A DNA stretch of 64,000 bases from assembly GCA_050251055.1 (NCBI GenBank), contig JBFWNL010000008.1, positions 64,001-128,000 of the forward strand, in the 5' to 3' direction. How positions within the stretch are numbered: the first letter of the stretch is position 1; the number at the start of each line of letters is the position of its first letter. The stretch is from Bacteriovoracia bacterium. Lineage in GTDB: Bacteria; Bdellovibrionota; UBA1018; JBFWNL01. Shown one piece after another: positions 31,471-46,926 of this stretch. A model generated the notes under the pieces. The model saw only the letters and a program-made list of their open reading frames with translations. It was not told the origin of the DNA and made no database searches. The position numbers and the translations under genes were made by a program.

Positions 31471-32403
31471 ATGCGGTCCTTTCAATTCCTCTTGATCCTT
31501 GCTTGTTTAGCGACAACCGCGGAAGCCACGGAGCCCCCGCATGATAACACGGTCGAGAAACAGCCTGGCACCGAGGCTTGGAAGTCTGATGGCCTAACTC
31601 CAGTCCTAAAAGAAGGAGACCGCGTAGAAAGTGACGAACTTCTTTTAGTCACTCATGCTGCGCGGCCGTACTCGAATGGGGTCGAAAGCGAGGAGTTGAA
31701 CCGACTGATCGAAAGCTTTCTCCAGAGGGGGCTTCCCGTGATCTATTTGGTAGGCACTCTTGATCCTGAATTCCTGAAAATGCAGTGGCCAAAGTTCAGG
31801 CCGACATATCTCTACGTTTCGTCGGGTGGCCAAATAAAGCTGCGTTTTAAATCTAAAAACATCCACATCGCTGGGGGATTTTTCGAGCTATGCGGATCAA
31901 ACACGGTTCGCGATAGTTTGATCAGCACTGGCCGAGAAAATGACGAAAAGACGGGGCCGGCCCGAATCACTTACGAACCAGACTCCGTTTTCTTAAATAC
32001 GCATGAACAAGTTCTCAAAAGGAAGCTAGATTCGATGTCGGATGAACAAATACTTCGCTATCTGTCGAAGGGCCTGTTTGCCGGCGGACGAATTGGAGAC
32101 GAGTTTGGCTGTAAATTTGGATTAGGTCTAGCAACCTTCAATGAGTATACCTTCGAAATCTTGCGCGATGGCAATCCGATCGGAAGCTTCGGAACCGGCA
32201 GTCGCAAGGTGAGTTTGGACTTTCCAACCAAGTCCATCTCCGAGCGAATTGCAGCGCAAAACCTGAAGACAACCGAAGTGTCGTCGAACTCGGTTTGCCA
32301 GGCCAAACTAGATTCAGAGGTAGTGAATTTAGTCCAAATCGCCCTACTAAAAGCGGTCGCGGCGGCGAGCCAAAGCTCAGCCGCGCCTAAGAAACAAGAG
32401 TAA
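31471..32403 (+). CDS. Hypothetical secreted protein (AT-richer than flanks)
   Basis: Signal peptide; IAGGFFELC motif; preceded by sigma54-like AGGCAC-N5-TTGAA (31443-31458). Confidence 0.7.
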   Translation: MRSFQFLLILACLATTAEATEPPHDNTVEKQPGTEAWKSDGLTPVLKEGDRVESDELLLVTHAARPYSNGVESEELNRLIESFLQRGLPVIYLVGTLDPEFLKMQWPKFRPTYLYVSSGGQIKLRFKSKNIHIAGGFFELCGSNTVRDSLISTGRENDEKTGPARITYEPDSVFLNTHEQVLKRKLDSMSDEQILRYLSKGLFAGGRIGDEFGCKFGLGLATFNEYTFEILRDGNPIGSFGTGSRKVSLDFPTKSISERIAAQNLKTTEVSSNSVCQAKLDSEVVNLVQIALLKAVAAASQSSAAPKKQE

Positions 32404-32445
32404 CGTAATCAATTCCCGATTGAGACCGGCTGCTTTTCCGTTTCC

Positions 32446-32602
32446 AGGGATTGGCTTCCGCTCTCAGCGCTAAACGCGCTTCGGCTGCAGCCCGGCCTCA
32501 GGGCGGGCCCGCAAGCGGGCACCCCCGCCCTTCCGGCTTTCACCGCTCGGCCATCGTGGCCTCACTATCCCTATAGCAAGGTACGAAACGCTACGCGTTT
32601 CG
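32446..32602. repeat. Multi-hairpin structured element B
   Basis: AGGGAT...ATCCCT closing stem with internal hairpins AGCGC/GCGCT, GCCCGC-AA-GCGGGC, GGCC-ATCGT-GGCC, then CGAAACGC-TAC-GCGTTTCG. Confidence 0.65.
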
Positions 32603-32612
32603 GCATTATAAA

Positions 32613-32815
32613 CCCACCATTTCTCAGCCACCGCCCGAGAACTTCTCGTCCAACATTCTCTTATAAAAAGACACAAGCCTCAGAGGGGGCATCCGCGGGC
32701 CACGAAGGCGCTGAGCGGTTGAGCCCATGGATGGGCGTCCCCATCTGAGGCTTGTGTCTTTTTATAAGAGAATGTTGGCTGGGAAATTGTGGTGCGGTGG
32801 CTGAGAAATGGTGGG
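32613..32815. repeat. ~200-bp imperfect inverted repeat overlapping the tRNA-Val 3' end
   Basis: Perfect 22-bp arms (32613-32634/32794-32815) and perfect 35-bp arms (32650-32684/32744-32778), with further pairing inside. Confidence 0.92.
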
Positions 32816-32883
32816 AGCTATAGGGATTGAACCTATGACCTTGACCGTGTAAAGATCCTGCTCTACCGCTGAGCTAAGCTCCC
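32809..32883 (-). tRNA. tRNA-Val(TAC)
   Basis: GGGAGCTTAGCTCAGCGGTAGAGCA...TTTACAC...GGTTCAATCC...CTCCCACCA cloverleaf. Confidence 0.93.
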
Positions 32884-32902
32884 ACCTACTGCGAACAAAC
32901 TG

Positions 32903-32935
32903 AAAAGGCGGCCCACCGGTGAAGCGAGCCGCCTT
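32903..32935 (-). terminator. Intrinsic terminator after rpoC
   Basis: AAGGCGGC...GCCGCCTT stem followed by TTCAGTTT on the minus strand. Confidence 0.7.
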
Positions 32936-32959
32936 CGTATCTTTTGAGTACCGACGCTA

Positions 32960-37102
<4,143 letters not shown>

Positions 37103-44884: not shown

Positions 44885-44961
44885 TGGCAGGCCAGGAGGG
44901 ATTCGAACCCACAACCTACGGATTTGGAATCCGCCGCTCTAGCCATTCGAGCTACTGGCCT
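44885..44961 (-). tRNA. tRNA-Trp(CCA)
   Basis: AGGCCAGTAGCTC...TTCCAAA...GGTTCGAATCC...GGCCTGCCA. Confidence 0.95.
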
Positions 44962-44969
44962 ACTCGCTA

Positions 44970-45119
44970 CTACTTACCTTCACGATGCATCGTGTGCTTA
45001 CGGCAGAATTTGCAGAACTTCTTGAACTGCAGCTTATCGGTCGTCTTCTGCTTGTTCTTCGTCGTCTGATAATTCTTCTGCTTACACTCGGTGCAATCTA
45101 AACCTACTCCGACTCGCAT
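44970..45119 (-). CDS. rpmG: 50S ribosomal protein L33 (Zn-binding form)
   Basis: [49 protein letters not shown] (49 aa; absent from the ORF track). Confidence 0.95.
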
Positions 45120-45230
45120 ACTTCACTTCCTTCTAATGTACTTTCAGGTGCTCGCTAAAATCGACATCCTGTCGTTTTTGGGTCCACTGGACCCACGCTG
45201 CACTCCAGAAAAATTTGCTCCTGCAAATTT

Positions 45231-46421
45231 TTACTCGATGATCTCGGACACGACGCCGGCGCCGACGGTCTTGCCGCCTTCGCGAATGGCGAAGCGCAGT
45301 TCCTTCTCCATCGCCACTGGCGTAATGAGATCCACCGTGATCGCGATGTTATCGCCCGGCATCACCATCTCCACGTTCGGCGGCAACTCCACGATGCCCG
45401 TCACGTCCGTCGTGCGGAAGAAGAACTGAGGACGGTAACCCTTGAAGAATGGAGTGTGGCGTCCGCCTTCTTCCTTCTTCAAGATATAAACCGAGCCCTT
45501 GAACTTCTTGTGCGGCTTCACCGATCCCGGCTTCGCCAACACTTGTCCGCGCTCGACTTCTTCCTTCTTCGTGCCGCGGAGCAAAGCGCCCAGGTTGTCC
45601 CCGGCTTCGCCGTAATCAAGCAACTTGCGGAACATTTCGATGCCCGTCACCGTCGTCTTCGTCGTCGGACGCAGACCGATGATTTCCACTTCCTCGCCCA
45701 CCTTAATCGTTCCGCGTTCCACGCGGCCCGTGACCACCGTACCGCGGCCCGAGATGGAGAACACGTCTTCCACCGGCATCAAAAACGGCTTGTCCTTATC
45801 GCGCTGAGGCTGGGGAACGTAAGCGTCCACCGATTCCATCAGCTGCACGATCGCCTTTTCGCCCAGGTCGCCCTGGTCGCCAGCCAGACCCTTCGTCGCC
45901 GAACCCTTGATGATCGGGATCTTGTCGCCCGGGAATTCGTACTTCGAGAGAAGCTCGCGAACTTCCATCTCCACCAGGTCCAAAAGCTCCTTGTCGTCGA
46001 CCATGTCGCACTTGTTGAGGAATACAACAATGGCCGGAACACCGACCTGGCGGGCGAGCAGGATGTGCTCGCGCGTCTGCGGCATCGGACCGTCAGCGGC
46101 CGAAACCACCAAGATCGCGCCGTCCATTTGGGCGGCGCCCGTGATCATGTTCTTCACGTAGTCGGCGTGCCCAGGGCAGTCGACGTGCGCGTAGTGGCGC
46201 TTGTCCGTTTCGTATTCCACGTGCGAGGTGTTGATCGTGATCCCGCGCTCTTTTTCTTCCGGCGCGTTGTCGATCTGGTCGTACGCACGTGCCTGCGCGT
46301 AACCCTTCTTCGCCAGCACCGTCGTGATCGCCGCCGTCAACGTCGTCTTGCCGTGGTCGACGTGACCGATCGTCCCGATGTTGCAGTGGGGTTTCTTTCT
46401 ATCAAATTTCTCTTTTGCCAT
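45231..46421 (-). CDS. tuf: Elongation factor Tu
   Basis: [21 protein letters not shown]. Confidence 0.99.
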
Positions 46422-46488
46422 TCTTCGTTCTCCTAAAAAACTTTACTGGGTGAGACGCCCGGAACATCCGAACGCCTCACCGAAATCA

Positions 46489-46564
46489 TGGAGCTCCCGA
46501 CGGGACTTGAACCCGTGACCTCACCCTTACCAAGGGTGTGCTCTACCAACTGAGCTACAGGAGC
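46489..46564 (-). tRNA. tRNA-Thr(GGT)
   Basis: Cloverleaf, anticodon loop TTGGTAA, CCA end. Confidence 0.95.
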
Positions 46565-46595
46565 ACCTAGTTCAACACCTTTTCAGACGTTGAAC

Positions 46596-46672
46596 TGGAG
46601 CGGGAGACGGGACTCGAACCCGCGACCCTCAGCTTGGAAGGCTGATGCTCTAGCCAACTGAGCTACTCCCGC
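46596..46672 (-). tRNA. tRNA-Gly(TCC)
   Basis: Cloverleaf, anticodon loop CTTCCAA, CCA end. Confidence 0.95.
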
Positions 46673-46735
46673 AAACTGCTCTCACTCCACAAATCCGAAA
46701 ACCAAAACTTTCACGGCACGCTCCACGCAAAAGTG

Positions 46736-46821
46736 TGGTGGAGAGGGAAGGGTTCGAACCTTCGAAGGCGTGAGCCGCCAGATTTACAGTCTGGTCCCTT
46801 TGACCGCTCGGGAACCTCTCC
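46736..46821 (-). tRNA. tRNA-Tyr(GTA)
   Basis: Cloverleaf with long variable arm, anticodon loop CTGTAAA. Confidence 0.95.
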
Positions 46822-46850
46822 GTCTCACAAACATTTTGCGCAACAATAAG

Positions 46851-46926
46851 TGGAGCTGGAGAAGGGACTTGAACCCATAACCTGCTGATTACAAATCAGC
46901 TGCTCTACCAATTGAGCTACTCCAGC
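46851..46926 (-). tRNA. tRNA-Thr(TGT)
   Basis: Cloverleaf, anticodon loop TTTGTAA, CCA end. Confidence 0.95.

Follow-up and report, generated by a model that had tools for sequence, protein, structure and literature searches.

The stretch of DNA considered here, called the window throughout, comprises 64,000 nucleotides (nt) of a Bacteriovoracia bacterium (positions 64,001 to 128,000 of contig JBFWNL010000008.1 in GCA_050251055.1, a draft genome of 3.77 Mb in 21 contigs and 93.5% complete, which we label G000). Directly after rpoC (32960-37102) lies a gene for tRNA-Val(UAC), whose 3' end takes part in a long palindrome that is followed by a second structured segment. Our analysis identifies this feature as one copy, in part decayed, of a composite element without genes that is attached to tRNA genes at their 3' ends and belongs to a family of folded modules whose arms are antisense and sense copies of the end of the local tRNA.

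The palindrome behind tRNA-Val

A repeat search places the inverted repeat at 32613-32689 and 32739-32815, with arms of 77 nt that are 90% complementary and lie 49 nt apart. An earlier interpretation made from the letters alone (the sequence-only reading) had resolved it into two perfect arms, the outer one taking in the very end of the tRNA. Both arms were confirmed, the outer one of 22 nt by base-by-base reading (32613-32634 with 32794-32815) and the inner one of 35 nt at 32650-32684 with 32744-32778, as was the presence of the last 7 nt of the tRNA (32809-32815) within the outer arm; between the two lies a block of 15 nt in which the arms differ (32635-32649 and 32779-32793, 8 of 15 positions alike). 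Equally borne out were an 11-mer farther downstream (32567-32577), which the repeat search returns as the exact reverse complement of 32817-32827 inside the tRNA, and an 8-3-8 hairpin (32584-32602) in the 35 nt (32578-32612) that separate this 11-mer from the arm. The proposed giant fold-back is beyond chance when folded as the RNA strand (-248.7 kcal/mol, z score -14.1, none of 100 shuffles equal), and the same stretch folded as DNA gives a z score of -14.8. As for relatives of the arms within the genome, where the sequence-only reading had left room for a repeated element, the arm sequences of the window match only their own partner in G000.

Could such a structure be produced by the assembly? 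Fold-back chimeras can yield palindromes, and the genome is a draft of many contigs. However, contigs from two public metagenome runs hold 31900-32679 (left flank and arm), 32650-32740 (apex) and 32749-33187 (right arm and tRNA) without a single differing letter, and they contain no joint within 32400-32900. As the contigs of the two runs agree without an alternative joint, the palindrome is not an assembly artefact; with the same architecture found at 18 tRNA genes of G000 and in other genomes, we consider a chimeric origin extremely improbable. The two runs belong to one study and consist of DNA contigs, which are silent on transcripts, rare excision and inversion.

Palindromes matched to their own tRNA genes

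ARAGORN predicts 45 tRNA genes in G000. At 18 of them the best local inverted repeat sets out within the tRNA itself, 6-26 nt from its 3' terminus, and runs on into the trailer; its far end, 20-200 nt downstream, is the reverse complement of that tRNA end. The idea that other tRNA genes might likewise carry flanks complementary to their own 3' ends, raised by the sequence-only reading, is thereby clearly answered in the positive across these 45 genes, and the match is specific. The complement of the tRNA's last 7 or more nt occurs in the 450-nt flank of its own gene in 13 of 45 cases, versus 72 of 1980 swapped pairs of tRNA and flank. When the last 25 nt are compared with a 600-nt flank, leaving out of the swapped set those tRNA pairs that share at least 18 of 25 identical end bases, exact antisense stretches of at least 11 nt are found for 11 of 45 tRNAs in their own flanks versus 4 of 1592 swapped pairs, and stretches of at least 12 nt for 6 of 45 versus none of 1592. 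Short hairpins that include the tRNA end and lack a shared module are present as well, for example at tRNA-Arg(UCG) and tRNA-Arg(CCG).

A conserved apex between variable arms

The tip of the long hairpin, its apex, belongs to a family of about 58 nt with 25 copies in G000 (nhmmer). Sixteen of these lie 33-66 nt 3' of an annotated tRNA, all in sense orientation, and two more adjoin apparent tRNA 3' fragments as judged by eye; the remaining copies stand behind protein genes, mostly between convergent genes, and run in the direction of the nearest gene where this can be told. The arms around the apex differ at every locus, yet pair almost perfectly. In an alignment of the 16 full copies, 90.7% of the cells are standard-paired, versus 67.9% after shuffling and 35-47% with slid partners, and both-sided changes occur in 21 of 33 pairs, including the two small helices of the tip, with none of 500 shuffles as high. 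Mismatches in the arms show no strand bias and comprise 31 G-U versus 54 A-C, a count that includes five loci where the local alignment chose spurious arms, and about 24 versus about 32 without these. The balance of G-U and A-C is not decisive as a discriminator between RNA and DNA, neither for these arms nor for the second module described below.

Next to the tip, the inner arms read as an A-run, a G+C-rich stem and a T-run. By its composition the long hairpin resembles an intrinsic terminator for both directions whose loop is oversized and folded, and it probably stops transcription of the tRNA gene. A scan for consensus terminators (loop of 3-8 nt) is blind to it, because its "loop" is the folded apex of 58 nt. 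The apex sequence itself gave no BLAST match in 30 genomes of the same order, and an exact degenerate pattern derived from it retrieved no stretch in the genome contigs and none in the metagenome contigs; by eye, relatives carry hairpins with a similar small loop motif at the same place.

A minor feature recurs in the longer hairpins, where a block of about 15 nt, 22 nt from the outer end, differs between the arms. It is seen at 32635-32649 in the window, where the block is itself a mini-palindrome, and at tRNA-Ala(GGC), tRNA-Leu(CAA), tRNA-Asp and tRNA-Ala(CGC). On the distal side the block forms a small palindrome of similar sequence at several loci, and on the proximal side it corresponds to an A/C-rich, G-poor motif common to trailers.

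The M1 module

The hairpin and the 11-mer beyond the palindrome belong to a second structured family, M1, of about 140 nt, with 11 copies in G000 (nhmmer). These lie 48-200 nt behind nine different tRNA genes, always in sense orientation, with second copies farther out at tRNA-Asp and tRNA-Arg(ACG). Each is built in the order of an A+T-rich linker, a hairpin (H1), a GTACCTT linker, a variable piece, a G+C-rich body of two hairpins (about 85 nt) and a closing piece; about half of the copies have a TATAAT-like hexamer ahead of H1. The variable piece reads as the reverse complement of the T-loop, the 3' strand of the T-stem and the first acceptor bases of the local tRNA. At this position, labelled aS2 in the window (Table 1), the other copies hold 8-16 nt antisense to their own tRNA, and exact matches extend over 16 nt at tRNA-Leu(UAG), 14 nt at tRNA-Arg(ACG) and tRNA-His, 13 nt at tRNA-Gln(UUG), 15 and 9 nt at the two copies of tRNA-Asp, 11 nt at tRNA-Val(UAC) and 9 nt at tRNA-Leu(CAG). 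The closing piece (S2) repeats the same tRNA in sense orientation from the T-loop onward; it covers 21 nt up to the CCA at tRNA-Arg(ACG) and tRNA-Gln(UUG), 8-9 nt at the Val, Leu(CAG), Ala(CGC) and Lys(CUU) genes, and 7 nt at Asp.

At its outermost end the long hairpin of the window contributes a further 7 antisense nt (aS1), and a homologous piece of 7-9 nt that matches the local tRNA is present at other M1 loci. Taken together, the variable piece and these 7 nt therefore provide each locus with a complete antisense copy of the last ~23 nt of its tRNA, which H1 splits 7-9 nt from the CCA side with a loss of 1-3 nt (at tRNA-Val, 7 nt from the CCA end with 1 tRNA nt missing). The overall order is thus sense (the tRNA itself, S1), antisense, sense. 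Because the antisense copy lies between two sense copies, it can pair either back to the tRNA end, forming the giant fold-back, or forward to S2, forming the stem of M1. The fold of M1 is conserved: RNAalifold predicts 42 pairs for eight copies, 18 of them with compensatory change, the H1 helix included. Folded as DNA, the stretch from the antisense pieces to S2 at tRNA-Arg(ACG) adopts a fold with helices of 7 and 12 bp on either side of the H1 branch (z score -5.5). The unit in the window is a worn copy, with a second sense copy of only 8 nt and an extra hairpin within its inverted T-loop.

Whether arms change under like bodies can hardly be judged from the copies at tRNA-His and tRNA-Asp, which are alike at 79 of 85 positions in the body and 8 of 11 in the antisense piece; the latter agreement stems from the likeness of the two T-stems, so that this pair proves little. 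As judged by eye, M1 is replaced by other conserved bodies behind the genes for tRNA-Pro(GGG/UGG), Lys(UUU), Cys, Ser(UGA/GGA), Val(GAC) and Phe, and they likewise carry antisense and sense pieces of the tRNA. At tRNA-Lys(UUU) an antisense copy of 22 nt is followed by 10 nt antisense to the D-arm, and at tRNA-Pro(GGG) there is a sense repeat of 20 nt, with a multi-hairpin insert of about 86 nt in the T-loop of the displaced copy.

Table 1. Parts of the element at tRNA-Val(UAC), in window positions, and loci of G000 with bodies other than M1 (contig:positions)
Feature	Position	Strand	Remarks
tRNA-Val(UAC) gene	32809-32883	minus	ARAGORN; Rfam tRNA, 62.6 bits
S1, sense copy	32809-32831	minus	last 23 nt of tRNA-Val, T-loop to CCA; mirrored by the downstream modules
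Long hairpin, proximal arm	32744-32808	minus	tRNA trailer; continues into the tRNA up to 32815
Proximal arm, outer part	32794-32808	minus	
Proximal arm, asymmetric block	32779-32793	minus	15 nt
Proximal arm, inner part	32744-32778	minus	ends in an A-run beside the G+C-rich stem
Conserved apex ("core", ~58 nt) of long hairpin	32685-32743	minus	two small helices with compensatory change
Long hairpin, distal arm	32620-32684	minus	
Distal arm, inner part	32650-32684	minus	
Distal arm, asymmetric block	32635-32649	minus	
Distal arm, outer part	32620-32634	minus	
aS1	32613-32619	minus	antisense to the terminal 7 nt of the tRNA (CCA and the acceptor bases on the discriminator side); outermost part of the long hairpin
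M1 profile match (nhmmer)	32443-32610	minus	
H1 module of M1	32578-32612	minus	A+T-rich linker with TATAAT-like hexamer, hairpin, conserved GTACCTT linker
aS2	32567-32577	minus	antisense of 11 tRNA nt (T-loop side, T-stem 3' strand, start of acceptor 3' strand)
Extra 24-nt hairpin in inverted T-loop	32543-32566	minus	from M1 alignment; particular to tRNA-Val copies
Last 4 nt of inverted T-loop	32539-32542		beyond the extra hairpin
M1 body	32454-32538	minus	two G+C-rich hairpins, conserved loops and linkers
S2 remnant	32446-32453	minus	8-nt sense copy of T-loop and T-stem 3' strand; closes M1 stem against aS2
Non-M1 body locus (L069)	C6:135510-136000		
Non-M1 body locus (L070)	C2:455800-456286		
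Non-M1 body locus (L071)	C13:64000-64520		
Non-M1 body locus (L073)	C1:238900-239512		
Non-M1 body locus (L074)	C4:265200-265614		
Non-M1 body locus (L075)	C6:189996-190400		
Non-M1 body locus (L076)	C9:105800-106227		

M1 across the order

When one M1 unit was compared by BLAST with 116 genomes of the order, G000 included, matches were obtained in 27 genomes besides G000; in 7 of these the sole match is to the tRNA-Arg end contained in the query. M1 proper is present in about 20 of the 115 other genomes, representing four other families and often with 3-7 copies per genome, while the same BLAST search finds none among the 19 genomes of the family we label f11. An exact pattern of two M1 motifs retrieved 12 loci among species-representative genomes, the records being metagenome-assembled genomes of Bdellovibrionales, Bdellovibrionia, Oligoflexia or Bacteriovoracaceae, one "bacterium" and one "candidate division WWE3". 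The latter (L117) has a typical M1 behind tRNA-Arg(CCU) in a stretch of 53% G+C, and its label may not fit the contig.

Counting a copy as tRNA-linked if a same-strand tRNA lies within 700 nt upstream, and counting five identical loci of the second set only once, we obtained 18 distinct tRNA-linked copies outside G000 (14 in the first set and 4 in the second); seven examined M1 loci have no same-strand tRNA in the stretch examined (at most 700 nt upstream). The closing sense repeat is exact over 18-21 nt, from position 56 to the CCA, in 14 of the 18 (12 of 14 and 2 of 4). In the first set, 11 of 14 loci show an exact match of 8-15 nt between the local tRNA and the antisense piece that follows H1, and the antisense piece of 7-9 nt before H1 is present at 7 of 14, with shorter pieces elsewhere. 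A perfect terminator-like hairpin always stands between the tRNA and the first antisense piece at these tRNA-linked loci. The tRNAs concerned are those for Arg (four anticodons), Gln, Tyr, Ser (two), Gly, Leu (two), Lys, Val and Pro, and one M1 family is found at no fewer than 15 tRNA species. A consensus of 26 copies from several genomes has 38 pairs, 31 of which occur with at least two pair types, and its cells comprise 893 Watson-Crick pairs, 20 G-U, 11 A-C and 31 others; the stems vary by compensatory change, and loops and linkers are fixed.

Signs of insertion and turnover

The boundary of the sense repeat in the T-loop is sharp, units are stacked, and their distribution is patchy. Stacked or tandem units are found at tRNA-Arg(ACG), where the unit of sense repeat, trailer, antisense piece and H1 is repeated 1.6 times, at tRNA-Asp, with two units about 1 kb apart, and at tRNA-Gln(UUG); tRNA-Gln(UUG) and tRNA-Pro(GGG) have a different trailer behind the second sense copy, and tandem repeats are seen in relatives too. 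Within one genus, the tRNA-Gly(CCC) gene by the ribonucleotide reductase gene carries a unit in genome G097 and none in G098, in downstream flanks that are not alignable and too diverged for a clean empty-site comparison. A tRNA-Val(CAC) gene that is identical over 84 nt is followed by a full unit at locus L109 and only by the 3' part of the body in G097. In a tree of M1 bodies, computed with the tRNA-derived columns masked, the copies cluster according to neither genome nor tRNA type; identity averages 0.78 within G000, 0.73 between G000 and other genomes, and 0.71 among the latter.

How the units may have come to their tRNA genes

What can be discerned from this anatomy about the origin of the element? 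The reading that we favour, tentatively and with slightly less than even confidence, sees in the unit a non-autonomous integrative element of miniature size whose attachment site is folded. It would enter a tRNA gene by site-specific recombination in the T-loop and supply a replacement 3' end together with trailer and terminator, and the old 3' end would be pushed downstream to become S2. The attachment site would probably be read as a folded single strand, with a stem made of the antisense and sense copies, H1 as an unpaired feature at its centre and the body as variable tip; the rarity of wobble pairs, as far as letters can tell, fits folded DNA. Selection on S1 could then keep the arms matched to the local tRNA, in combination either with correction of the imperfect palindrome by template switching, which would pass stepwise from the tRNA end to the antisense copy and on to the second sense copy, or with repeated re-integration. 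That the palindrome is the end of a tRNA-targeting mobile element based on hairpins was one of the proposals of the sequence-only reading. It fits the anatomy much better than a control of tRNA maturation does, on the evidence of stacked units, of units present in one genome and absent from a related one, and of direct repeats that copy the tRNA end from the T-loop onward; no enzyme and no moving intermediate was seen among the genes and contigs described below. The companion proposal of an invertible segment, on the other hand, has no evidence in its favour: all 16 tRNA-linked apex copies and all tRNA-linked M1 copies share one orientation, and a strand-switch joint was not seen in the public contigs.

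Several points weigh against an integrative element. We found no recombinase tied to it: none of the eight tyrosine recombinase genes of G000 adjoins an M1 locus, neither of its two large serine recombinase genes lies beside an M1 unit, and its best match to the integron integrase model TIGR02249 reaches 77 bits against a cut-off of 265. Matches to the Y1/RAYT transposase (PF01797) and to reverse transcriptase (PF00078) are absent from G000, the latter leaving a retroelement with a tRNA primer-binding site unsupported. The M1 units hold no open reading frame (ORF), and among 24 neighbouring ORFs of at least 170 amino acids in relatives none is an integrase; with ordinary housekeeping genes as neighbours, the units stand alone. 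An empty site with both flanks conserved was not found in the related genomes compared, nor was a circular or excised form seen in the public contigs of the two runs. Different genera have M1 at the same tRNA in the same gene setting: G097 and G090 behind the tRNA-Gly(CCC) that follows ribonucleotide reductase, and G098 and G046 behind the tRNA-Gln(CUG) that follows a class I Glu/Gln-tRNA synthetase gene (Pfam tRNA-synt_1c). In these shared contexts the sense repeat reproduces exactly the tRNA sequence of the respective genome. The copy in the window lacks a full S2, of which 8 nt are present. Moreover, a recombinase that swaps the tRNA end of an element does not explain related bodies with arms matching at least 15 tRNA species, so that an added re-templating step is needed, which we infer only. 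Finally, uniform orientation, conserved unpaired motifs and retention across genera would also fit a function in the host's RNA.

Such an RNA-level function is the strongest competitor, although we regard it as somewhat unlikely. The antisense pieces would pair with the 3' end of the precursor tRNA and S2 would release it, as in a switch between alternative pairings, or M1 would be a small RNA with a tRNA-like CCA end; in either form it would serve termination, 3' processing or tRNA sensing. The sense orientation of every tRNA-linked copy behind its own tRNA speaks for this explanation, as do the apex copies behind protein genes that follow the nearest gene's direction where tellable, the conservation of structure by compensatory change with invariant unpaired motifs, the TATAAT-like hexamer in front of H1 in many copies, and the maintenance of M1 at the same tRNA loci in different genera. 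In the M1 stems G-U pairs are slightly more numerous than A-C, and one apex copy preserves a helix through four G-U pairs; against this, wobbles account for only about 2% of the paired M1 cells, and in the long arms A-C exceeds G-U. No sigma-70-like promoter at the locus passes the scan, and an Rfam scan of 32200-33000 returns the tRNA only, the other hits having E values of 0.048 or above and lying far below the gathering scores. An RNA function also leaves unexplained the tandem and stacked units, the exact repeat of 21 nt, and presence and absence within a genus. The more specific suggestion of the sequence-only reading, that the trailer acts as a cis-antisense control of tRNA maturation, is not directly supported: pairing in the arms is nearly all Watson-Crick and G-U does not exceed A-C, no RNA run was found to contain the locus, and the antisense piece sits in a conserved module that is closed farther on by a second sense copy.

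Might the structures instead be passive by-products? Terminator hairpins would provoke template switching, palindromes would extend into the tRNA end and give rise to the order of sense, antisense and sense, nothing would be mobile, and the modules would be old terminator sequence. Arms that are unique to each locus and nearly perfect agree with such a process, as do mismatches without strand bias and the short hairpins at tRNA-Arg(UCG) and tRNA-Arg(CCG). We nevertheless judge it unlikely, since the same modules, the same architecture and the same split point 7-9 nt from the CCA occur at many unrelated loci, with M1 in about 20 other genomes; a shared apex, H1 and body are not what unconnected copying errors would produce, and the tree of M1 bodies does not follow the genomes. 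Still less probable, in our view quite improbable, is a guide-type element, in which M1 would be, or encode, a structured guide whose aS1 and aS2 choose the target tRNA end for a recombinase acting in trans, in the manner of the bridge RNAs of IS110-family elements, parts of which match the target beside them. Two short variable segments in a conserved structured scaffold do match the flanking target at every locus, but the DEDD recombinase of the IS110 family (PF01548) has no match in G000 and no recombinase gene lies next to the units. The guide would, moreover, have to change before each move, and we know of no IS110 system that makes a sense repeat of 21 nt.

To return to the integrative reading, it can be carried one step further, to a class of gene-less mobile elements on tRNA gene ends that rebuild their arms from the tRNA at which they land and thereby create their own folded attachment site, or guide, for a recombinase provided in trans. 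We offer this wider proposal as a doubtful possibility. In any case, the units are a lineage-wide element system anchored on tRNA ends, comparable to att-flanked integrative elements, folded recombination sites and hairpin repeats, and the step by which the arms come to match each tRNA could be new biology.

Relation to known systems

The ends of tRNA genes are classic landing sites of phages and genomic islands, and the crossover sites of tyrosine integrases within them were reportedly ordered by Williams (2002, Nucleic Acids Research) in a scheme of sublocations. Like these integrative elements, the units described here show a direct repeat of the tRNA 3' end from T-loop to CCA, would have the incoming DNA supply the working end, and would be stacked by re-entry. 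Unlike them, they are 0.2-0.4 kb in size and gene-less with no integrase beside them, and they include, internally, a copy of the tRNA end in antisense orientation as well as folded, conserved modules that are spread over 15 or more tRNA species.

Short, non-coding, hairpin-forming elements in many copies at gene 3' ends, possibly acting as terminators, are known as REP/REPIN, Correia, ERIC and RUP sequences. The units share these traits with REP/REPIN and miniature inverted repeats; there, however, the arms are conserved, whereas here the tip is conserved and the arms are local sequence, the Y1/RAYT transposase is missing from G000, and there is no ordinary short target duplication. Behind the tRNA-Tyr genes of E. 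coli tyrT there are said to be repeats of 178 bp, each beginning with the last 19 nt of the tRNA. These resemble the tandem units found here in beginning with a direct copy of the tRNA 3' end, and differ in being confined to a single locus, without an antisense copy and without a structured module shared across tRNAs. Quasi-palindromes can be corrected by template switching, as in the Ripley model; this could keep the arms perfect and pass the tRNA sequence to the antisense and then to the second sense copy, but by itself it leaves unexplained why the same modules follow many tRNA genes in many genomes.

The order of sense, cargo, antisense, tip and sense is yielded by the CTX phage, which integrates as a folded single strand and whose attachment hairpin was reportedly described by Val et al. 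in 2005. The likeness lies in the logic of a folded single-strand site, which for M1 is a proposal. A similar layout is found in the attC sites of integrons, where paired boxes enclose an unpaired central spacer and a variable tip (PMC5027507). M1 is analogous to attC in the succession of sense, cargo, antisense, variable tip and sense, in an outer box of about 7 nt and an inner box around an unpaired central feature, and in a structure that is conserved while the stem sequence varies with few wobbles; in M1 we measure an outer helix of 7 nt, the H1 branch, an inner helix of 12 nt and a structured tip, with boxes that are tRNA copies. The differences are that the boxes here copy the neighbouring tRNA and have no shared GTT core, that the central feature is a whole conserved hairpin, and that an integron integrase is missing from G000. 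A search of open-access literature and preprints, which leaves subscription journals uncovered, found no description of tRNA-flanking elements with inverted and direct copies of the tRNA end; the motif reported behind archaeal tRNA genes is a different one (PMC5217627).

A tiny gene-less element that is found at as many as two fifths of the tRNA genes in one genome, and again in other genomes of its bacterial order, is of consequence under either of the leading explanations. If mobile, it would point to a recombination route that copies or reads the end of its target tRNA through folded DNA, and to a further enzyme, and such a route could be a programmable system for tRNA-directed insertion. 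If it works at the RNA level instead, the control of tRNA 3' ends would involve a widespread cis element of a type absent from Rfam. In practice, the units explain many of the odd palindromes, displaced tRNA fragments and contig breaks by tRNA genes in metagenome-assembled genomes, where M1-type units should not be taken for prophage scars.

Surroundings of the locus and further observations

In the window, a canonical terminator of rpoC (32904-32936, minus strand) with a stem of 14 bp, a loop of 5 nt and a T-run ends about 20 nt before tRNA-Val. Given this terminator between the two genes, the tRNA probably has its own promoter or depends on read-through. The two ORFs nearest the tRNA-Val unit belong to no Pfam family. 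No further copies of the tRNA-Val end, with up to 3 mismatches, were found in the 64-kb window, and a larger island behind tRNA-Val is accordingly not supported. The modules are absent from the cluster of tRNA-Thr/Tyr/Gly/Thr and tRNA-Trp genes (44885-46926) upstream of the ribosomal protein and rpoBC region.

The extra hairpin of the window copy has a counterpart in the M1 behind tRNA-Val(CAC) at locus L109, where the same insert, a hairpin of 24-26 nt in the inverted T-loop, lies at about 360-385; the T-loop of valine tRNAs differs from the common TTCGA type. From their shared insert, the tRNA-Val copies of M1 would seem to form a sub-lineage tied to valine tRNAs.

Two M1 units in other genomes stand in unusual company. 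In G013 (contig C18, L082/L101) a unit lies 3' of a tyrosine integrase gene and before a gene for a DpnII-type restriction enzyme, and in G006 (contig C8, L094/L102) a unit adjoins a gene for a reverse transcriptase of 271 amino acids, with a second, partial M1 1.5 kb away. We take the integrase and reverse transcriptase genes to be neighbours rather than parts of M1, and the two sites may be island contexts in which units accumulate.

Lastly, the region C2:198200-198700 of G000 (L077) contains the 3' half of a tRNA-Ser, from T-arm to CCA, which ARAGORN misses. It lies far from any tRNA-Ser gene and has its own apex-bearing palindrome and downstream body; by its sequence it may be a displaced end or a dead tRNA.

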